32,000 bases of DNA from Ruminococcus albus 7 = DSM 20455 (GTDB taxonomy: Bacteria; Bacillota; Clostridia; Oscillospirales; Ruminococcaceae), in assembly GCF_000179635.2 (NCBI RefSeq), contig NC_014833.1, positions 2,970,001 through 3,002,000 on the forward strand. Reading direction: 5' to 3'. This document shows, piece by piece, positions 4,030-29,514 of the stretch (the first letter of the stretch is position 1; every line of letters begins with the position of its first letter). Both the position numbers and the translations under genes were made by a program. The notes under the pieces are model-generated. The model was given only the letters and a program-made list of their open reading frames with translations. It did not search any database and had not been told where the DNA came from.

Positions 4030-4188
4030 ATGGCTATCCCTTTAACACACCACCACAAAATGCTATATAACAATGGATCAACTTGTTTATGTTATCCTTC
4101 CCCCGCCTGCGGCGGGGGAAGGATAACCGCCGTGTATGTCCGTTTCAGTATTACACGGATCAAGTTGGTGTGTCAGCAGGATAACCGA
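4030..4188. mobile_element. MITE-like non-autonomous element, copy 1 (inverted relative to copy 2)
   Basis: The left end ATGGCTATCCCTTTAACACACCACCACAAAATGCTATATAA matches both ends of the 12304-12514 element. It has a degenerate right inverted repeat (..GGTGTGTCAGCAGGATAACCG) and an internal perfect palindrome TTATCCTTCCCCCGCC-TGC-GGCGGGGGAAGGATAA (4092-4126). It is flanked by the direct repeat AAAAATATTT (4020-4029 and 4189-4198). Confidence 0.6.
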
Positions 4189-4244: not shown

Positions 4245-4523
4245 AATATTTTTGAAACGCTATGACCGGGAGAAGTAACTCTGGTATTCACTCACAGAGA
4301 GCGCGGGAGAGGTGTGAGCCGCGCAGCAGAGCCTTTGTGAATAACACCCGTGAGCGGCAGACCCAACGGCATTCTGCCAAGTAGGAAAGACGTGTTCCTC
4401 ACGTTATGAGGATAAGAGTGACAACGCTCGGATACTTTTTTTAAGCTTTTGAGCGCTTGTAAATTCAGGTGGTACCGCGAAGTCTATGGCTTTCGTCCTG
4501 TTATCGGGACGGGAGCCTTTTTT
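4245..4523 (+). promoter_or_regulatory. T-box riboswitch leader, asparagine specifier
   Basis: Conserved T-box sequence GGTGGTACCGCG at 4468-4479. It is followed by an intrinsic terminator (GGCTTTCGTCC 4488-4498 pairing with GGACGGGAGCC 4507-4517, then TTTTTT). An AGAGAG/GGTGTGA-type stem I region lies at about 4296-4320. The candidate specifier loop GAAUAACA (4339-4346) offers AAU or AAC, both Asn codons, which fits the downstream asnS. Confidence 0.8.
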
Positions 4524-6327: not shown

Positions 6328-6888
6328 ATGGAACGTATCATGCCTGTTCTGCTTGGGCTGATAATATTTGTGCTGCCCTTTGCAATTATGAGATATCACC
6401 GTTACAGTGCTGACAAAAAATGCCTGCGAAAGCTGGATATGCGCATCAAAGACGAACTTATATCCTCGGAGAACAGAGGTGCGATAGACCCGCCCGTCAT
6501 GGCGATGATAAAGGGGCATATCGTGAAAATCAGATTGCTGTGGTGCGGGATAGCGCTGGCAATATTCGGTTTTTCCGCAATTATGTGGGATCTCCTTCTT
6601 GTATTTGGCGCTTTACCGATCTGTGCCGCAGCGATAGCTGATATGCTCTGCCGCCTGTTCAGGCTGAGAGATGTATCAAGTCTTATGAAAGTAAAAGCCT
6701 TTGTTTTCAGGAGCAGGAGCACCGATGCCGCCGCAGTTTATTACGATATGCAAAGGCTGGGATACTTCATTTTTGCTCAGAACACAACATTCGTCAGCGG
6801 AACTAAAGCTGAAGCAGGAAGATATGTGAATCTTATAGTCAGGCGGAGCAAGAAAAGATATCATCCCGTGATGATACTTGATTTTTAA
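6328..6888 (+). CDS. Hypothetical membrane protein
   Basis: 186-aa ORF starting 4 nt after the asnS stop. It has about three hydrophobic helices (PVLLGLIIFVLPFAI, LLWCGIALAIFGFSAIMWDLLLVFGALPICAAAIA). I recognise no family and see no clear SD, so the start is uncertain. Confidence 0.55.
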   Translation: MERIMPVLLGLIIFVLPFAIMRYHRYSADKKCLRKLDMRIKDELISSENRGAIDPPVMAMIKGHIVKIRLLWCGIALAIFGFSAIMWDLLLVFGALPICAAAIADMLCRLFRLRDVSSLMKVKAFVFRSRSTDAAAVYYDMQRLGYFIFAQNTTFVSGTKAEAGRYVNLIVRRSKKRYHPVMILDF

Positions 6889-6976: not shown

Positions 6977-7005
6977 TTGACATTTATGCAGTTTTAGTGT
7001 ATACT
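6977..7005 (+). promoter_or_regulatory. Candidate promoter of asnA
   Basis: TTGACA (6977-6982), a 17-nt spacer, then TATACT (7000-7005). Confidence 0.45.
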
Positions 7006-7027
7006 TAATGCATAGTTTAGGAACAAG

Positions 7028-7070
7028 GACGTTCCGGTCGCTGAGGCGGTCGGAGCGTCTTTTCGTTTTT
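7028..7070 (+). terminator. Intrinsic terminator-like hairpin in the asnA 5' leader (candidate attenuator)
   Basis: A 14-bp stem including G-U pairs: GACGTTCCGGTCGC (7028-7041), loop TGAG, GCGGTCGGAGCGTC (7046-7059), then TTTTCGTTTTT. It lies between the candidate promoter and the asnA RBS. Confidence 0.5.
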
Positions 7071-7095
7071 GTAAGTTTTGAAAGGTAGTGAACTT

Positions 7096-8106
7096 ATGTC
7101 AAAATCACTTTATCTGCCTGAGGGCTATACCTCGGCACTGTCGCTGAGAGAAACTCAGCACGCTATCAAGTACATAAAAGATGTATTCCAGCAGGCACTT
7201 TCCATACAGCTTATGCTGGACAGAGTATCCGCACCCCTTATTGTAAGACAAGGCAGCGGTATAAACGACGACCTCAACGGCGTTGAGCGCAAGGTTGATT
7301 TCGATATCAAGGAGATCGAAGGCAAGGCTGAGGTAGTACAGTCACTGGCTAAGTGGAAGAGAATGGCTCTCTACCGCTACGGATATCAGGCAGGCGAGGG
7401 CATATACACCGATATGAACGCTATCCGCCGCGATGACGATACCGACAACCTCCACTCCATTTTCGTTGACCAGTGGGACTGGGAAAAGGTCATCAGACGT
7501 GACCAGCGCACCGAGGATTTCCTGAAAGATACCGTTAAGTGCGTAGTCAAGGCGATAGTATACACCAAGAGAAAGGTCAGCCTGAGATATCCCCAGCTGA
7601 AAAACACAGTAAGCGAAGACGTATTCTTTGTGACCACACAGGAACTTGAAGATATGTACCCCGACAAGACCTCCAAGGAGAGAGAAAGACTCATCACCAA
7701 GGAGCATGGTACAGTATTCATAATGAAGATAGGCGGCAAGCTGAAGAGCGGAGAAAAGCACGACGGCAGAGCCCCCGACTACGATGACTGGTCACTGAAC
7801 GGCGATATCTTCTTCTGGAACGAGGTACTTGACAACGCTATCGAGATATCCTCTATGGGTATCCGTGTTGATGAAAAGTCACTGGCTTCACAGCTGAAAG
7901 AAGCAGGCGCTGAGGACAGGATGCAGTATGACTATCACAAGATGATAGCAAACGGCACACTTCCCCTGACCATAGGCGGCGGTATCGGTCAGTCCAGACT
8001 TTGTATGCTTCTGCTTGAAAAGGCACACATCGGTGAGGTACAGTCCAGCATCTGGCCTGAGGATATGATAGAAAAGTGCGCAGAAAAAGGCATAACCCTC
8101 CTCTAG
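7096..8106 (+). CDS. asnA: Aspartate--ammonia ligase (asparagine synthetase A)
   Basis: 336 aa counted from the ATG at 7096 (RBS AAAGG). It resembles AsnA end to end: ..LSLRETQHAIKYIKD..SAPLIV..GINDDLNG..QWDWEKVI..GGGIGQSRLCMLLL.. Confidence 0.93.
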   Translation: MSKSLYLPEGYTSALSLRETQHAIKYIKDVFQQALSIQLMLDRVSAPLIVRQGSGINDDLNGVERKVDFDIKEIEGKAEVVQSLAKWKRMALYRYGYQAGEGIYTDMNAIRRDDDTDNLHSIFVDQWDWEKVIRRDQRTEDFLKDTVKCVVKAIVYTKRKVSLRYPQLKNTVSEDVFFVTTQELEDMYPDKTSKERERLITKEHGTVFIMKIGGKLKSGEKHDGRAPDYDDWSLNGDIFFWNEVLDNAIEISSMGIRVDEKSLASQLKEAGAEDRMQYDYHKMIANGTLPLTIGGGIGQSRLCMLLLEKAHIGEVQSSIWPEDMIEKCAEKGITLL

Positions 8107-8458
8107 CCCTCGCGCGGGTTCGCAACACGTCACTTACATAGTGATGTCGGGAAGTATGTTTCTCGGTAGCCATTGTTAGCTATAACGGAAAAGTCCTCGG
8201 GCGGACGGCTCGACACGTCACTTACATGGTAAGTTCGGTCAGTATGTTTCTCGGTAGCCATTGTTAGCTATAACGGAAAAATCCCTCGCGCGGGTTCGCA
8301 ACTCGTCACTTATATGGTTAGTTCGGTCAGTATGTTTCTCGGTAGCCATTGTCAGCTATAACGGAAAAGTCCTCGGGCGGACGGCTCGACACGTCACTGA
8401 CATTGTGATGTCGGGAAATTTGCCACTCGGCAGCTGTTTGTATGAAAATCAAAAAAGT
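8107..8458 (+). repeat. Left tandem-repeat array, four ~88-bp units
   Basis: Units at 8107-8194, 8195-8282, 8283-8370 and 8371 to about 8458 (the last is diverged). Each holds a GC-rich head, then ACGTCACT, then TTCTCGGTAGCCATTGT.AGCTATAACGGAAAA. The heads alternate between CCCTCGCGCGGGTTCGCAAC and CCTCGGGCGGACGGCTCGAC. Confidence 0.85.
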
Positions 8459-8466
8459 ACAATTAT

Positions 8467-8499
8467 GAGCGTGAGCAACAATATGCCCACGCTCTTTTT
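8467..8499 (+). terminator. Terminator-like hairpin in the unique core between the two repeat arrays
   Basis: GAGCGTG (8467-8473) pairs with CACGCTC (8488-8494) and is followed by TTTTT. Confidence 0.45.
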
Positions 8500-8506
8500 G
8501 TGTCAT

Positions 8507-8916
8507 CCGACGCGAGGAAACCCTATCCTCCACCATAACCCACATCGGATACCGAGAAGCCAACTTCCCTTACTATCCATGTACGTGACGTACTGCGTAC
8601 CCGCGCGAGGGACACCATATCCTCCACCATAAACCACATCGGATACCGAGAAGCAAACTCCCTTTACTAGCCATGTACGTAACGTACTGCGTACCCGCGC
8701 GAGGGACACCTTGTCCTCCACCATAACCCACATCGGATACCGAGAAACCAGCTCACCTTTACTAGCCATGTACGTGACGTATTGCGTACCCGCGCGAGGG
8801 ACACCCTATCCTCCACCATAGCCTACATCGGATACCGAGCAACCAACTCCCCTTTACTAGCCATGTACGTGACGTACTGCGTACCCGCGCGAGGGGTGCG
8901 TAACCGCGCGAGGGGG
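8507..8916 (-). repeat. Right tandem-repeat array: four 94-95-bp units plus partial units, same family as the left array but inverted
   Basis: On the + strand the units end in CCCGCGCGAGGG at 8600-8611, 8694-8705, 8789-8800 and 8884-8895. Each contains CCTCCACCATAA.CCACATCGGATACCGAGAA and GTACGT.ACGTAC. The reverse complement of a left unit aligns to a right unit at roughly two-thirds identity by eye. Confidence 0.85.
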
Positions 8917-9084
8917 GACTTTACTTTTTTGGGGAAGTATGGTAATATGATTGTATATGTATCGCACTGTGTTGTCCTTTTTCGATTTAAAGACTATTTA
9001 AGAATTGATGTGCTATCATATACACACAGATAAAACACAGCCCGTGTCACTGTGGGCAGAACAAAAGAAAAGGGGCAATACATC

Positions 9085-11451
9085 ATGTTTTTCAGAATAA
9101 TGAAAAAAGACCTGAAACGCAAAAAAACTATGAATATCATACTGTTTCTGTTCGTGATACTCAGTTCGCTGTTCGCAGCAGCCAGCATGAACAATATCGC
9201 AGCGGTAACAGGAGGTATCGACCACTATTTCGAGATCTCGGATATGCCGGATGCCATAGTAAGCATTCCTGCTGAAACAGATGCAGAAGAAAAGATCAAG
9301 GCACTGCCGTCTGTGCATGAAACGAAGACCGAGCACCTGATAAGCATAATGGAATCGAAGATGTTGTTGTACAAGGGTAAAAAAATGGATAATTTCATCA
9401 ATCCGCCCCTTGTTCATTCCGATAAGGAAATGGGCATAAACTACTTCGATGAAGACAATAACGTGATAGAGAGCGTTGACAAGGGCTGGTTTTATGCTTC
9501 ATCTCAGTTTACAAAAGGTCTTGACAAGGAGATCGGGATAGGTGATGAGGTAATACTTGATACAGGCAGCACAAAACTCTCACTGAGGTATGCAGGCGCA
9601 GCCAAGGGCGTTATATTTGACACTCAGAGCAACGCATCCCCACATTTGATAGTAAACAGTGCAGATCACGAGATCATCAGTAACGATCCCGAGATCAGGA
9701 AGTTCAACAAAATGGTCAACGTTACGATCATGTACGTCAAGACCGATGATGTGCAGGCGATAAAGGATCTGGACTATCCGACAATGCGCGTAAACACCGG
9801 AGATGATATGAAGGGTTCGTTCCTTTACGATATGCTGGCTGCATACGCACTGCTTATGGTGAGTGCAGTGCTGATGCTGACTGCTTTTATAGTCCTGAGA
9901 TTCACCATAGGTTTCACAATAAGCGAAGAATTCCGTGAGATAGGTGTTATGAAGGCGGTCGGTATCAATAACGGCAGTATACGCTTTTTGTATATGATAA
10001 AGTATCTTGCGATATCGGTCGCAGGTGCAGCAGCAGGCTTCTTCGGATCTATACCGCTTTCGGCATATATGATGAAAACCGTATCCCGTGACATAGTGCT
10101 TGAAAGCAACAATAATATCACTATCGGTATACTCAGTTCGATCGGGGTAGTATTGCTGATAATGCTGTTCTGCTACATCAGCACCCGCAGGATAAAGAAG
10201 TTCTCTCCCATAGACGCAGTAAGAAACGGTCAGACAGGTGAGCGTTTCAAAAAGAAGAGTATCATACATCTGGGAAGTTCAAAACTGCCTGCAACGGGAT
10301 TTATGGCGATAAACGATGTACTCAGCGCACCTAAGCAGTTCAGCATAATAACTGTGGTATTCACTCTTTGCATACTGCTTACAACATTGATGTCAACATT
10401 CGCCCTGACGCTTAAAAGCGATAAGCTGCTGTGGCTTTTCGGTGTACCTTCAAGTGATATACATATAATGGATACATCATATTTCGGAGAATACTTCGTA
10501 GATTTCAATGAGTACAAAAACGTCATGAATAAGACAGAAAAGATCCTGGAAGAAAACGGCATAGAGGGCGAATGCAGCATTACCGCAGGCTTCGGATATG
10601 AGGTAAGCCTTGGAGATAAGACTGAAACAGAGATGTGCATGGTGACCAAGGGCAGCGAGAATGATCTGTTGAAATGCAGTGAAGGATATCTGCCTGAAAA
10701 GACAGATGAGATAGCGATGACGGGTTACGCCATGGATGACATCGGTGCAGGGATAGGTGACCGTGTAAAGATAAAGATAGGTGATACCACAAAGGAGTTT
10801 ATAATATCAGGAAAATACTCAACGTTCATGGGCGGCGGACACTGCTGCCTTATGCACCCTGATACGGAACTTGTCACATCCAGCATTATGACCGGATCAG
10901 GCTTGCAGATACGCCTGACGGGTGACAATGACAAGGATGATATAGATGCTGCCATAGCAAAGATAAAGAAAGCCATAAACAGCGAGAAGGTATACAACAC
11001 CAGCGATATGATAAAAGAAGCAACAGGTCTTTCTGACACGCTGAACATGATAAAGAAAATGATGATGTTACTGACTGTGATAGTTACTGCTATGATAGTT
11101 ATACTGATGGAACGCAGCTTCATATCAAAGGAAAAGAGCGAGATAGCACTGATGAAGGCTGTGGGCATATCCGACAGGAGCATAATCGCACAGCACACAC
11201 TGCGCTTTGTGATAGTTGCACTGGCAGCCTGCGGTATCGCATCGGGAGTACTGCTGCCCATAAGTAACGTGATGATGGACTATATATGCTCAATGGTAGG
11301 CGATGTATCCGGGGTCAGGTGTGATCTCAATGCATTCGAGGTATTCGCGGTATGCCCTGCGATAGTTGTAGTCATAACCGTTTTGGGAGCCATGCTCACA
11401 TCACTTTACACCAGAACGATCCGTGCGGCTGACACAGCAAGCATCGAATAA
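9085..11451 (+). CDS. ABC transporter permease, internally duplicated MacB/FtsX type
   Basis: 788 aa from the ATG at 9085 (RBS AAAGGGG). The layout is TM, a ~210-aa extracytoplasmic domain, then three TMs, and this pattern occurs twice. This is typical of the FtsX-like permease family. Confidence 0.85.
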   Translation: MFFRIMKKDLKRKKTMNIILFLFVILSSLFAAASMNNIAAVTGGIDHYFEISDMPDAIVSIPAETDAEEKIKALPSVHETKTEHLISIMESKMLLYKGKKMDNFINPPLVHSDKEMGINYFDEDNNVIESVDKGWFYASSQFTKGLDKEIGIGDEVILDTGSTKLSLRYAGAAKGVIFDTQSNASPHLIVNSADHEIISNDPEIRKFNKMVNVTIMYVKTDDVQAIKDLDYPTMRVNTGDDMKGSFLYDMLAAYALLMVSAVLMLTAFIVLRFTIGFTISEEFREIGVMKAVGINNGSIRFLYMIKYLAISVAGAAAGFFGSIPLSAYMMKTVSRDIVLESNNNITIGILSSIGVVLLIMLFCYISTRRIKKFSPIDAVRNGQTGERFKKKSIIHLGSSKLPATGFMAINDVLSAPKQFSIITVVFTLCILLTTLMSTFALTLKSDKLLWLFGVPSSDIHIMDTSYFGEYFVDFNEYKNVMNKTEKILEENGIEGECSITAGFGYEVSLGDKTETEMCMVTKGSENDLLKCSEGYLPEKTDEIAMTGYAMDDIGAGIGDRVKIKIGDTTKEFIISGKYSTFMGGGHCCLMHPDTELVTSSIMTGSGLQIRLTGDNDKDDIDAAIAKIKKAINSEKVYNTSDMIKEATGLSDTLNMIKKMMMLLTVIVTAMIVILMERSFISKEKSEIALMKAVGISDRSIIAQHTLRFVIVALAACGIASGVLLPISNVMMDYICSMVGDVSGVRCDLNAFEVFAVCPAIVVVITVLGAMLTSLYTRTIRAADTASIE

Positions 11452-12290: not shown

Positions 12291-12303
12291 GTGATATAGA
12301 TAT

Positions 12304-12514
12304 ATGGCTGTCCCTTTAGCACACCACTACAAAGCGCTGTATAAAATACAGGTATTTCCAGTTCTGATATTTCACCAATTAATTTGGTGTAATATCAGAA
12401 CCAGAAACACTCGGCGTTTATCCTTCCCCCGCCGCAGGCGGAGTAAGGATAACATCAACACGATGATTCATTGTTATATTGCACTATGTAATGGTGTGTT
12501 AAAGGAATAACCAT
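12304..12514. mobile_element. MITE-like non-autonomous element, copy 2
   Basis: ~41-nt imperfect terminal inverted repeats with 32/41 matching: ATGGCTGTCCCTTTAGCACACCACTACAAAGCGCTGTATAA (12304-12344) against the reverse complement of 12474-12514. The internal palindrome TTATCCTTCCCCCGCC..GGCGGAGTAAGGATAA lies at 12418-12452. ATAGATAT occurs on both flanks (12296-12303 and 12516-12523). Confidence 0.65.
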
Positions 12515-13199: not shown

Positions 13200-14413
13200 G
13201 TGCATTCAAAAAGCTTTCAGCGGTAGTAGTGGTACTGTTCATAGCGCTGGCAGTATTCCTGAACCATGAGATATCAAGGCAGAGCACCGTTACAAACGGC
13301 ATATACCGACTGGAAGCAAAGCGGCTGGCAGACGATATTGAAGATACGGGAAGCTATGATATTTCTGAGTATCCACATATAACAGGGGTATTCACCGAGG
13401 ATGACGGGGATCTGTACTCATCTAACAACAGCTATGTTATAGTGGAAGCAGACGGAAGACTCTACCGCGTTGAATACGATATGTACAACAGCTCACAGAT
13501 ACTGCTGATAACGGATATAGTACTTGTCGGGATGATCGCAGTGCTGGCGGTACTGCTTTTATACATCCACAGGAATATAATAAAGCCCTTCGGCAGGCTC
13601 AACGATGTACCCAAGGAGCTTGCAAAAGGAAATCTGGCAGTGCCCCTGCCTGAAGAAAAGAGCAGGTTCTTCGGGCAGTTCACATGGGGAGTAAATCTGC
13701 TGAGGGAGAGCATTGAGGATAAGCGAAACAAAGAACTTACTATGCAGAAGGACAAAAAGCTCCTGCTGCTGTCACTTTCACACGATATCAAAACTCCCCT
13801 TTCGGCTATCAAGCTGAATGCAAAGGCTCTGTCGAGAGGATTATACAAGGACGCGGAAAAACAGCGTGAGGCTGCTGAACATATCAACGCACGTGCAGAC
13901 GAGATAGAAAACTTCGTTAGCAGGATAACCAAGGCATCCAGCGAGGACTTTATGGAATTTGAGGTGAGCATGGGTGAGGAATTCCTGAGCAGCATACTAT
14001 CAAGGATAGAGGCAAGATACAAGCCGCAGCTGGAACTTACACATACTGAATTTGTGATAAACGAGTATGACGACTGCATACTCAGCTGCGACGGTGACAG
14101 GATAGCGGAATGTTTGCAGAACCTAATAGAAAATGCCATAAAATACGGTGACGGCAAACGGATAGAGATATGCTTCGACACCATGGACGGCTGTGAACTT
14201 GTAACAGTAAAAAACACAGGCTGTGCTATTGAAGCTAAAGAACTGCCGCAGATATTTGAAAGCTTTCACCGCGGCAGCAACGCAGGCAATATACGCGGCA
14301 ACGGTCTGGGGCTGTTTATATGCCGCAAGCTTATGGCACTTATGGGGGGCGAGGTATATGCGGATATCAAGGACGAATGCTTTCTTGTGACGCTGGTGGT
14401 CAGGCTTGCATAA
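13196..14413 (+). CDS. Sensor histidine kinase (HisKA/HATPase_c)
   Basis: The start ATG overlaps the regulator's stop codon (ATGA). It has two TM segments, the H-box SHDIKTPLSAI, the N-box LIENAIKYG and the G-boxes NTGCAI and GNGLGL. Confidence 0.9.
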   Translation: MSAFKKLSAVVVVLFIALAVFLNHEISRQSTVTNGIYRLEAKRLADDIEDTGSYDISEYPHITGVFTEDDGDLYSSNNSYVIVEADGRLYRVEYDMYNSSQILLITDIVLVGMIAVLAVLLLYIHRNIIKPFGRLNDVPKELAKGNLAVPLPEEKSRFFGQFTWGVNLLRESIEDKRNKELTMQKDKKLLLLSLSHDIKTPLSAIKLNAKALSRGLYKDAEKQREAAEHINARADEIENFVSRITKASSEDFMEFEVSMGEEFLSSILSRIEARYKPQLELTHTEFVINEYDDCILSCDGDRIAECLQNLIENAIKYGDGKRIEICFDTMDGCELVTVKNTGCAIEAKELPQIFESFHRGSNAGNIRGNGLGLFICRKLMALMGGEVYADIKDECFLVTLVVRLA

Positions 14414-14439
14414 AAATAATCGAAACAGGAGAAAATATC

Positions 14440-14973
14440 ATGATCGAAGATTTTGTAAAAGTAAAAGACGTAGACAAAGAGACCATAGAGAAGTACCGCG
14501 GCAAACTGCCCGATGAATATCTGGAGATATGGCAGGAACATGGCTACTGCACATTCTATAACGGCTATCTGAAGATAATTGACCCGGAAGAATATCAGGC
14601 ACTGCTTGAAAGATCTTATTTTCTTGGGAACGTTTCGATACCTATAATGGCGACTGCTTTCGGTGATATTATAACATGGGAGAAAGACGAATTTCTTGGT
14701 ATCGTCAAATACAGATACGGTGACAATGATGTTATCCAGGCGAGATTCAAGTATTTTATGATGGACGTTGAGTTCGGTGAACTTGATGAAGAATTTTTCA
14801 CTATTGAACAATACGATGAAGCTGTAGAAAAATACGGCGAACTTGAATACGATGAATGTTTCGGTTATGTTCCTCTGCTTGCACTGGGCGGAAATGAATC
14901 TGTAAACAACCTGAAAAAAGTGAAGATGAAAGAACATATAGCACTCATCTATAACATGGTCGGTGAGATATAA
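14440..14973 (+). CDS. GAD-like / DUF1851 (Tdi1-type immunity protein-like) family protein
   Basis: 177 aa from the ATG at 14440 (RBS AGGAG). KLPDEYLEIWQEHGYCTFYNGYLKIIDPEEY and PIMATAFGDIITWE match my memory of the GAD-like plus DUF1851 pairing. This was not verified by a search. Confidence 0.5.
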   Translation: MIEDFVKVKDVDKETIEKYRGKLPDEYLEIWQEHGYCTFYNGYLKIIDPEEYQALLERSYFLGNVSIPIMATAFGDIITWEKDEFLGIVKYRYGDNDVIQARFKYFMMDVEFGELDEEFFTIEQYDEAVEKYGELEYDECFGYVPLLALGGNESVNNLKKVKMKEHIALIYNMVGEI

Positions 14974-28695: not shown

Positions 28696-29514
28696 TTATT
28701 TATCATACTCTATCGAATCATACATTTTCCTGAATTTGCTTATAAACTTGTTCTCTTTTTTCTTATTGCAGTATGCATAATACATATAACAGGAATCACC
28801 CTCGAAATCGATCATCATATCACAGAACCAATCTGTATCGTCTTCTGTAAAATAAAATCTCATGTGATTGCCAAGCTGATCTTTTTTCTCATAGCCTTTG
28901 ATCTCACTATCACTGCTCATAGCTGCATCCATGAACGGGAACATAAAGTTGAGGTATGTTTCCTCATCTCCGTCACCAAGTTCAAGATCTGACATATCAT
29001 ACTTGGAATATACGAAACCCATATCCCTGTTAGCATACGCAGTAACATCCTCTGCATCTACATCGCCGAATATCGTACTGCTCTTTTTTTCCACTTTCTG
29101 CGGAAAAGTTACTGTGATATCGCCTAAGCTTACTGTCTGCGGAGAATTATACTTTATCTGATAACCCAGAATGGATACCAATATAATAATGACAGTAATG
29201 AGAATACTTATCAGCTTGGTGGTCGGTATAGAAGCCGAGCGTTTTCTTGTATAACTGCCGCTGTCAAAAGACGAGTTCATGCCATAGTTACCGTAACCCT
29301 GACCGCCGCCATTCATACCGTAGTTTCCGTAACCCTGACCACCGCCGTTCATACCGTAATTGCCATAGCCCTGATTTCCGCCGTAGCCATAGCTGCTCTG
29401 CTGACCGTATCCTGTGTTGTTATACGCAGGACCCATTTCTGCTCTTCTTGTACCGCAGTTTTTACATTCGTTGTCTGTTGCGCCCAAAGGGGCACCGCAA
29501 ATAGGACAATTCAT
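28696..29514 (-). CDS. Zinc-ribbon / Gly-Tyr-Asn-rich linker / single-TM / extracytoplasmic-domain protein (paralog A)
   Basis: N-terminal CPICG..CKNCG, then a G/Y/N low-complexity region, a TM (LISILITVIIILVSILGY), and a C-terminal domain resembling the one in the downstream gene. RBS AAGGAG. Confidence 0.7.
   Translation of the reverse strand: MNCPICGAPLGATDNECKNCGTRRAEMGPAYNNTGYGQQSSYGYGGNQGYGNYGMNGGGQGYGNYGMNGGGQGYGNYGMNSSFDSGSYTRKRSASIPTTKLISILITVIIILVSILGYQIKYNSPQTVSLGDITVTFPQKVEKKSSTIFGDVDAEDVTAYANRDMGFVYSKYDMSDLELGDGDEETYLNFMFPFMDAAMSSDSEIKGYEKKDQLGNHMRFYFTEDDTDWFCDMMIDFEGDSCYMYYAYCNKKKENKFISKFRKMYDSIEYDK
29276..29383 (-). repeat. Three in-frame 36-nt tandem repeats inside the 28696-29514 CDS
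   Basis: On the + strand, repeat copies begin with TTCAT at 29276, 29312 and 29348. They encode about three copies of a GGGQGYGNYGMN-type dodecapeptide. Confidence 0.8.

Follow-up and report, generated by a model that had tools for sequence, protein, structure and literature searches.

Two opposed arrays of ~90-bp tandem repeats 3' of asnA in Ruminococcus albus 7

Here we describe two arrays of ~90-bp tandem repeats that lie in opposite orientations directly 3' of the gene asnA in Ruminococcus albus 7 (DSM 20455), and that together with a short core form a repeat module at positions 8107-8916 of the window, i.e. the whole 32-kb stretch of contig NC_014833.1 that was analysed. The two opposed arrays are real. 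We read them, with moderate confidence, as a locus- and lineage-specific pair of inverted non-coding minisatellites, similar to a variable number of tandem repeats (VNTR) locus, in the R. albus 7 lineage. Compared with sister lineages the module is an insertion or replacement; its copy number changes in whole units between strains, the units are mosaics that diverge at a neutral-like pace, and the terminator in the core is conserved. On this reading the kind of element is already known, namely the intergenic minisatellite, and what is new is the opposed-array configuration.

Results

Architecture of the repeat module

The stop codon of asnA (TAG, 8104-8106, + strand) forms the exact left boundary of the module. 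The left array (8107-8458, + strand) consists of four units of 88 bp each, L1 (8107-8194), L2 (8195-8282), L3 (8283-8370) and L4 (8371-8458), and was delimited by Tandem Repeats Finder (period 88, score 416; repeat family D1), by unit alignment and by an identity matrix. After a unique core of 59 bp, to which no strand was assigned (8459-8517), the right array follows (8518-8895), whose four units are read on the - strand: R4 (8518-8611, 94 bp), R3 (8612-8705, 94 bp), R2 (8706-8800, 95 bp) and R1 (8801-8895, 95 bp). Tandem Repeats Finder reports this array with a period of 94, 4.1 copies, 90% matches and a score of 626; it is covered by repeat families D2-D4 and by the unit identities, and nhmmer with a unit profile recovers its units with E-values of 1e-22 to 1e-23. 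The sequence CCCGCGCGAGGG marks the 3' ends of the right units at 8611, 8705, 8800 and 8895. Two head-only pieces, both on the - strand, border the right array: a remnant at its inner side (8500-8517, CCTCGCGTCGGATGACAC), which unit alignment identifies as the innermost partial unit of the right arm, and an extra copy or stub at its outer side (8896-8916; family D4; Tandem Repeats Finder period 19, 2 copies), which with the head of R1 makes a 19-bp head-only tandem of 2 copies at 8878-8915. A sequence-only reading made before this analysis had given coordinates for the arrays that are all borne out in the sequence. It had also described a degenerate partial unit next to a unique core of ~50 bp with a terminator-like hairpin; the head-like piece and the hairpin are indeed present, but the piece is only 18 nt long and fused to the core, and the core measures 59 bp.

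The two arms belong to one family placed in opposite orientations, as had been proposed, and they are related in inverted orientation only: the Smith-Waterman score of L1 against R1 is 55 where the null gives 13.5 +/- 2.1 (z ~20), whereas the same-strand control yields z = 0.4. Inverted arms extend over up to 78 nt, with 74% complementarity. The measured identity of arm to arm is 62-66%, and lower for L2 and L4, so the earlier estimate of about two-thirds was right. The module ends in terminal inverted repeats of 18 nt (8107-8124, + strand, and 8897-8914, - strand; inverted pair I14), which are complementary at 16/18 positions (89%), and as a single strand of 826 nt the module folds back on itself (z = -10).

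Within the arms, the right units are 88-92% identical to each other, and the left units L1-L3 78-90%. The innermost left unit, L4, shares only 56-72% identity with the others because its tail differs. The left units are mosaics of a head (A or B), a middle segment with two alleles and a tail with two alleles; their heads alternate in the order A/B/A/B, type A being CCCTCGCGCGGGTTCGCAAC and type B CCTCGGGCGGACGGCTCGAC, and the true super-period of the left array is therefore 176 bp. Such mosaicism is the signature that unequal exchange or gene conversion between units would leave. The head pattern CCCTCGCGCGGGTNCGCA occurs seven times in the window, all within the arrays, where 0.02 occurrences are expected. 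As a duplex the head reads CCCTCGCGCGGGTACGCAGTACGTCAC, and as a candidate operator it would comprise CCCTCGCG[A/C]GGG plus T.CGCA..ACGTCAC, which is GC-rich and near-palindromic. In strains L001-L006 the leftmost head holds a perfect 12-bp palindrome, CCCTCGCGAGGG.

Copy-number variation between strains

The locus was compared with contigs that encode an identical AsnA or a near-identical FtsX, and that come from many independent samples put together by different assemblers. At least 10 independent assemblies share the opposed layout at this locus, in four copy-number states, which agrees with the earlier argument that it is not a mirror artefact of assembly. Written as (left, right) unit numbers, the haplotypes are (4,4) in the window, (2,2) in L001, L003 and L005, (2,1) in L002 and L006, and (1,1) in L050-L055, where it is identical in six assemblies. 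The copy number changes in whole units, by 88 or 176 bp in the left array and by 94/95 bp in the right one. Units at corresponding positions in different strains are orthologous, with 94-96% identity. The asnA and ftsX genes of strains with different haplotypes differ by 0.6-1.9%. All assemblies examined agree in the orientation of the core. Short-read assemblies, among them L004, L007 and L026, are often broken or gapped at the arrays.

The order (1,1), (2,1), (2,2), (4,4) tracks the divergence of asnA and ftsX, and the (1,1) strain is the closest to the array-less outgroup. In this smallest form, the module consists of one left unit, the terminator hairpin, one right unit and the head stub, giving an imperfect palindrome of ~250 bp. 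Its single left unit resembles a type A head fused to the innermost tail, and an 88-bp deletion is an equally possible origin. The (1,1) haplotype also carries a third, non-palindromic head, CCCCCTAGCCCGGG.

Lineage specificity of the module

In two lineages without the arrays, the sister lineage L022 (AsnA 99% identical) and the more distant L048 (AsnA 88% identical), asnA is followed by its own terminator, a convergent PAS-GGDEF-EAL gene for cyclic di-GMP turnover (3257-4933 in L022 and 1489-3222 in L048, both on the - strand), an element resembling a miniature inverted-repeat transposable element (MITE) and the FtsX operon. Because both loci have it, this layout is probably ancestral, and in the R. 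albus 7 lineage the repeat module would have taken the place of some 2.1 kb. On the left side, an alignment of asnA 3' ends shows that homology across lineages stops exactly at the asnA stop codon, which is TAG in the strains with arrays and TAA or TGA in array-less relatives; on the right side, homology with the array-less lineage resumes at ~8945-8975. The window and L022 share 95-98% DNA identity on the asnS/asnA side. On the other side, that of FtsX, BLAST gave no alignment with L022 at E <= 1e-20, and the region upstream of FtsX has a column identity of ~75%. The 3' end of asnA therefore appears to mark the place where core DNA gives way to variable DNA through recombination or replacement.

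No remnant of the GGDEF-EAL gene is detectable in the window. In R. albus 8 and three other relatives, units are absent: asnA has an ordinary terminator there, and the genes downstream of it differ. Two short similarities to L022 were also considered. For the weak match of the right flank to the asnA terminator of L022 (score 27), orthology with the region upstream of FtsX is the better explanation. Between the type B head and the terminator of the L022 GGDEF-EAL gene, two matching blocks (8 + 6 nt) can be seen by eye; they are suggestive and not significant.

Searches for copies elsewhere

The nhmmer search with the unit profile gave no other copy in the 32-kb window or in the other related Ruminococcus loci that were fetched (~300 kb). 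Apart from the arrays, the related loci likewise lack the head palindrome, and so does the rest of the window, even with 2 mismatches allowed. When one genome per GTDB species was scanned for the pattern, the sole hit was a chance one, within a coding gene of Rhodoferax. A scan of the JGI metagenomes (241 million records) returned only the same locus, viral scans including IMG/VR gave only single chance matches, and plasmid and phage collections searched with blastn in distant mode gave no match. The BOX-like dispersed element that the sequence-only reading had offered as one possibility is thus not supported, as no second locus appeared in the window, the related loci, or the genome, metagenome, viral, plasmid and phage searches. 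Nor do these searches show the unit as a common intergenic repeat scattered across the genome; they show a single locus only. The failure to assign the arrays to a described class of elements stands, with Rfam, plasmids, phages and the large collections all without a match. In the literature, nothing relevant was found on intergenic or inverted tandem repeats of Ruminococcus.

At the protein level, a database search with an 88-aa repeat open reading frame (ORF) found one variant of the same locus, P0121, and two repeat 'proteins', which were rejected as chance matches: they correspond to eukaryote-like satellite DNA and have no nucleotide similarity. A search with a 123-aa repeat ORF found no match. 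The repeat periods are not multiples of three, and most variant loci have no called gene there. In keeping with the sequence-only reading, in which the ORFs slide through the units in changing frames, a called gene that spans the repeats is not a recurrent feature of most variant loci; P0121 is a database gene call that does read through the 2+2 variant.

Constraint and RNA structure

The units drift like unconstrained DNA beside DNA that is clearly constrained, as the divergence of the arrays resembles that of four-fold degenerate sites while the adjacent promoter region is invariant. When the window is compared with L001, differences are seen at 25/425 sites of the arrays (5.9%) and at 38/782 four-fold degenerate sites of the flanking genes (4.9%; p = 0.26 against the arrays). 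By comparison, none of the 168 positions of the promoter and leader flank differ (p = 8e-4 against the four-fold sites), nor do any of the 207 positions of another intergenic region. The flank in question, 8917-9084, is also identical over 168/168 positions in L002 and, by eye, in L050, whereas four-fold sites differ by 2-10%.

The units show no sign of a common RNA structure. Single units fold no better than shuffled sequences, with z-scores that scatter around zero (-2.5 to +1.6), and for whole arms the z-scores lie between -1 and -3 on either strand. With alignments in unit or junction phase, RNAalifold gives consensus energies of 0 to -2.3 kcal/mol for both strands, with no shared structure and no covariation, and the hairpins in the middle segment lie in different registers in different unit types. 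Scans detected neither a promoter nor a terminator per unit. In Rfam searches over 7000-10000 at E <= 10, the arrays contain only two sub-threshold chance matches that reach in from the core terminator; at the gathering score, the only match in the whole window is a T-box at 4253-4503, and the scan for tRNA and tmRNA found none. These results, together with the absence of a processing or toxin gene nearby, count against the array of small RNAs that had been proposed. The array of protein-binding sites, also proposed, is weakly supported: the head is more conserved between the arms, but the units as a whole behave as neutral-like DNA, and neither the window nor the related loci contain a further site of the head motif.

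Two further ideas were discarded. A replication terminus, dif site or fork trap was rejected, as the GC skew simply follows gene orientation and does not switch at 8.5 kb. Ends of Logan contigs were not accepted as evidence of transcript ends, as the MITE-like repeat has copies that span both end positions, 4089 and 12474.

The core terminator and the downstream flank

The core contains an intrinsic-terminator-like hairpin followed by five T residues (8467-8499, + strand), with a GAGCGTG..CACGCTC stem according to the fold prediction. The hairpin itself (8467-8494) folds as a 7+3-bp stem, and the T-run occupies 8495-8499. A simple terminator scan with a loop limit of 8 missed this hairpin, which was found by folding. 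On the - strand the terminator is weaker, the U-run being 10 nt away. The core is identical at 58/59 positions between strains. The hairpin is predicted to be the terminator of the asnA operon. Since neither the terminator scan nor the folds reveal a terminator upstream of the core within the left array, the left arm would be transcribed together with asnA as a 3' untranslated region (3'UTR).

The sequence 8917-9084 (+ strand), which lies outside the repeats, is the promoter and 5'-leader region of the FtsX-type ATP-binding cassette (ABC) operon according to the promoter scan and the alignments. Promoter-like sites were found at 8921-8949 (+ strand) and 8978-8950 (- strand). By eye, the flank also holds a direct repeat, TTAAAGA-N4-TTAAGAA, with an extended -10 element, TGCTATCAT, at ~8984-9014; both are conserved in the array-less lineage, as judged from the alignment to L022. 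The region may be bound by the response regulator encoded downstream. The same region has a hairpin at ~9036-9054.

Genomic neighbourhood

AsnA matches Pfam PF03590 at 1.4e-105 and is an exact match to ADU23118.1; the FtsX-like permease encoded 3' of the arrays is an exact match to ADU23119.1. The gene order is T-box leader, small ORF, asnS, hypothetical gene, asnA, the arrays, FtsX-type ABC permease, ATPase, OmpR-type response regulator and histidine kinase. The T-box leader (4253-4503) matches Rfam RF00230 with 102.8 bits, and the hypothetical gene between asnS and asnA (6328-6888) has no Pfam or NCBIfam match. Because the T-box leads the small ORF, asnS, the hypothetical gene and asnA, the latter appears to belong to a tRNA-sensing operon. 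Searches of the long ORFs of the 32 kb against Pfam and NCBIfam found no gene for a recombinase, transposase, Cas protein, toxin, Rep or Par protein.

The window also contains a MITE-like palindromic family of ~160 bp that is unrelated to the arrays and whose ends resemble ATGGCTATCCCTTTAACACACCAC. Copies are located at 4030-4186 and 12296-12513 of the window, at 1215-1372 and 2667-2827 of L047, at ~5190-5290 of L022 and at ~3470-3590 of L048. The pair in the window forms inverted arms of 117 nt (4030-4146 and 12398-12514) that are 84% complementary, and these bracket the asnS-asnA-arrays-ABC segment, with ~8.25 kb between them. In L047 a copy is inserted just 3' of asnA; by comparison with R. 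albus 8, it has an apparent target-site duplication of ~10 bp, AAATGAATAT.

A second large intergenic palindrome of the window, a composite of ~315 bp at 2290-2605, lies between convergent genes for a C-C bond lyase and a CAP/dockerin protein; it has inverted arms of 87-93 nt and contains three separate hairpins, terminator-like in both directions. A 36-bp tandem repeat of ~3 copies, 72-86% identical, is present at 29276-29383 inside the ORF 28696-29514 (- strand). This ORF has a weak zinc-ribbon match only, and it probably encodes a repeat-containing protein, as the 36-bp period is in frame. Just after the two-component system, the ORF 14320-14973 has GAD-like and type VI secretion Tdi1 C-terminal (immunity protein) domains; R. 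albus is a Firmicute in which a type VI secretion system would not be expected.

Discussion

In the interpretation that we favour, a pair of inverted non-coding minisatellites, the ~0.8-kb module would have replaced ~2.1 kb between asnA and the FtsX-type ABC operon, and the lost DNA would have held the asnA terminator, the convergent PAS-GGDEF-EAL gene and the MITE-like element. The number of units would subsequently have changed by replication slippage or by unequal exchange between units, processes that may be favoured by the GC-rich, near-palindromic heads at the unit boundaries. The left array would be a passive 3'UTR of the T-box-controlled asnS-asnA operon, with the core hairpin and U-run serving as the terminator of that operon, and the right array would be spacer DNA upstream of the ABC-operon promoter. 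Judging from drift at the neutral rate, the lack of an encoded protein and the lack of a shared RNA fold, the units would have no sequence-specific function. The repeat module is real and curious, and probably functionless.

Several observations weigh against this interpretation. The head is more alike between the arms (29/35 of its first 35 nt) than the rest of the unit (33/60; Fisher p = 0.007), which uniform neutral decay does not predict. The outer-right, head-only stub is kept in every haplotype. From one haplotype to the next (n = 4), left and right copy numbers increase together, which is unexplained if the arms change independently, and the haplotype data do not polarise expansion against contraction. 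A source of the units was not found, as they have no significant similarity to the resident MITE-like family, the 2290-2605 palindrome or the ancestral GGDEF-EAL gene. It should also be noted that the scan of one genome per GTDB species did not return the copies of the window itself, so that R. albus 7 is absent or masked in that collection and its full genome was not scanned directly.

Some of these observations would fit better if the heads were operators of an unknown dimeric DNA-binding protein, so that the arrays acted as a roadblock, an insulator or a nucleoprotein platform between the asnA operon and the ABC promoter. Besides the conservation of the head between the arms, this would account for its perfect 12-bp palindrome in several strains, for the head-only copy directly upstream of the promoter region in all haplotypes, and for a right-arm period of 94-95 bp, which is arithmetically ~9 helical turns. 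However, half of the left heads are of the divergent B type and the head of the (1,1) haplotype is not palindromic, substitutions between strains fall in the head too, no head site was found outside the arrays in the window or the related loci, no candidate binding protein is encoded nearby, and the ABC-promoter elements common to the array-less lineage lie outside the arrays. We consider a binding array unlikely. To about the same degree we doubt that the module is a foldback-type non-autonomous element, i.e. a MITE with long terminal inverted repeats made of tandem sub-repeats, inserted once 3' of asnA. The 18-bp terminal inverted repeats at the exact ends, the small size and lack of coding capacity, the insertion or replacement relative to sister lineages with its sharp left boundary at the stop codon, and the folding back of the whole module all point in this direction, and the MITE with a target-site duplication in L047 provides an example of a true insertion just 3' of asnA. 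Yet the module, with ..CTCTAG to its left and GGGACTTT.. to its right, shows no target-site duplication, the collections searched yielded no second copy, the module has no similarity to the resident MITE-like family, no transposase is encoded nearby, and there is no empty site for comparison, as sister lineages hold a different gene at this position. A foldback origin is compatible with the present behaviour of the module as a pair of minisatellites. We give somewhat less credence still to a functional and undescribed module, whether a foldback-type element whose arms expand in step or a tunable platform of head palindromes that, through an unknown protein or a long hairpin RNA formed on read-through, insulates or tunes both operons (asnA and ABC/two-component) and whose coordinated copy number is selected.

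That the arms are RNA modules transcribed towards the core, the left one as the asnA 3'UTR and the right one from the - strand site at 8978-8950, giving small RNAs, a sponge or a type III antitoxin-like RNA, seems improbable to us. The units of both arms would be in the 'sense' orientation for convergent transcription ending at a hairpin able to terminate both ways, with no terminator ahead of the core the transcription of asnA must run into the left arm, and tails containing GGA can be seen by eye. These points are outweighed by the lack of a consensus structure or covariation on either strand and in either phasing, by fold z-scores around 0 for units and of -1 to -3 for whole arms on both strands, by the lack of an Rfam family match and of a toxin or processing-nuclease gene after the terminator, by the neutral-like drift and by the poor terminator on the - strand. 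Inverted repeats that flank a short segment with a directional terminator also call to mind an invertible, phase-variable switch, in which recombination between the arms flips the core terminator; with a single core orientation in every assembly examined, arms that are only ~65% identical and no recombinase encoded within 32 kb, this is very improbable. An inverton was rejected on the same orientation and recombinase evidence. Finally, an artefact of assembly or sequencing, which the frequent breaks of short-read assemblies at the arrays might evoke, can practically be dismissed: the AsnA and FtsX proteins exactly match R. albus 7 accessions on a 3.69-Mb contig, and the layout recurs, with consistent unit orthology, in assemblies from different assemblers and samples.

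If the module is a pair of ordinary minisatellites, it would be a VNTR marker that cleanly resolves strains of the R. albus 7 lineage in rumen metagenomes, and it would be a case in which a PAS-GGDEF-EAL gene was replaced by a self-expanding palindromic repeat module bringing its own terminator. The arrays are also a recurrent cause of contig breaks there. If instead the head binds a protein or the arms expand in concert, this would reveal a mechanism or a selection that keeps long imperfect palindromes symmetric in bacteria.

Comparison with known repeat systems

Some classes of repeat can be set aside on simple grounds. The arrays are not CRISPR (clustered regularly interspaced short palindromic repeats), in agreement with the sequence-only reading: the entire unit is repeated at 78-92% identity without a unique spacer segment, and the long ORFs of the window that were searched against Pfam and NCBIfam include no cas gene. 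An iteron or centromere (par) array was rejected, as the units measure 88-95 bp versus the short 7-22 bp of such sites and lie in a chromosomal housekeeping context without rep or par genes. In type III antitoxin arrays (ToxI, CptI, TenpI), units of 34-45 nt with a conserved RNA fold precede a terminator, after which comes a toxin endoribonuclease gene. Our locus shares the succession of tandem non-coding repeats and an intrinsic terminator, but after the terminator come an inverted array and then the FtsX permease, with no toxin ORF, and the units have no conserved fold.

The BOX elements of Streptococcus pneumoniae (boxA-boxB(n)-boxC), the repetitive extragenic palindromes and bacterial interspersed mosaic elements (REP/BIME) and the neisserial intergenic mosaic elements (NIME) occur in tens to hundreds of dispersed copies and have strong conserved hairpins of RNA or DNA. 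Like BOX and REP/BIME, the module is modular with a tandem inner part, intergenic, near gene ends, and contains GC-rich palindromic sub-motifs; unlike them it occupies a single locus, and RNAalifold (0 to -2.3 kcal/mol) shows no conserved stem-loop per unit. Foldback (FB-type) elements and MITEs with sub-repeated terminal inverted repeats are mainly eukaryotic. They resemble the module in their inverted arms of tandem sub-repeats in variable number, short unique centre, terminal inverted repeats, lack of coding capacity and folding back. The module differs from them in that its arms are only ~65% identical and that a target-site duplication, further copies and a transposase in the window are not seen.

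A genome carries mycobacterial interspersed repetitive units (MIRU) at dozens of loci; they keep a single orientation with respect to the operon, and they often contain small overlapping ORFs. As in VNTRs of the MIRU type, head-to-tail units (88 and 94/95 bp, in a class of ~40-100 bp) abut a stop codon in non-coding DNA, their copy number differs between strains of one species, units exchange segments, and there is no coding capacity. In contrast to MIRU, the module was found at a single locus, in searches that did not cover the R. albus 7 genome in full, and is therefore not 'interspersed', and its two arrays are arranged in opposite orientations around a terminator.

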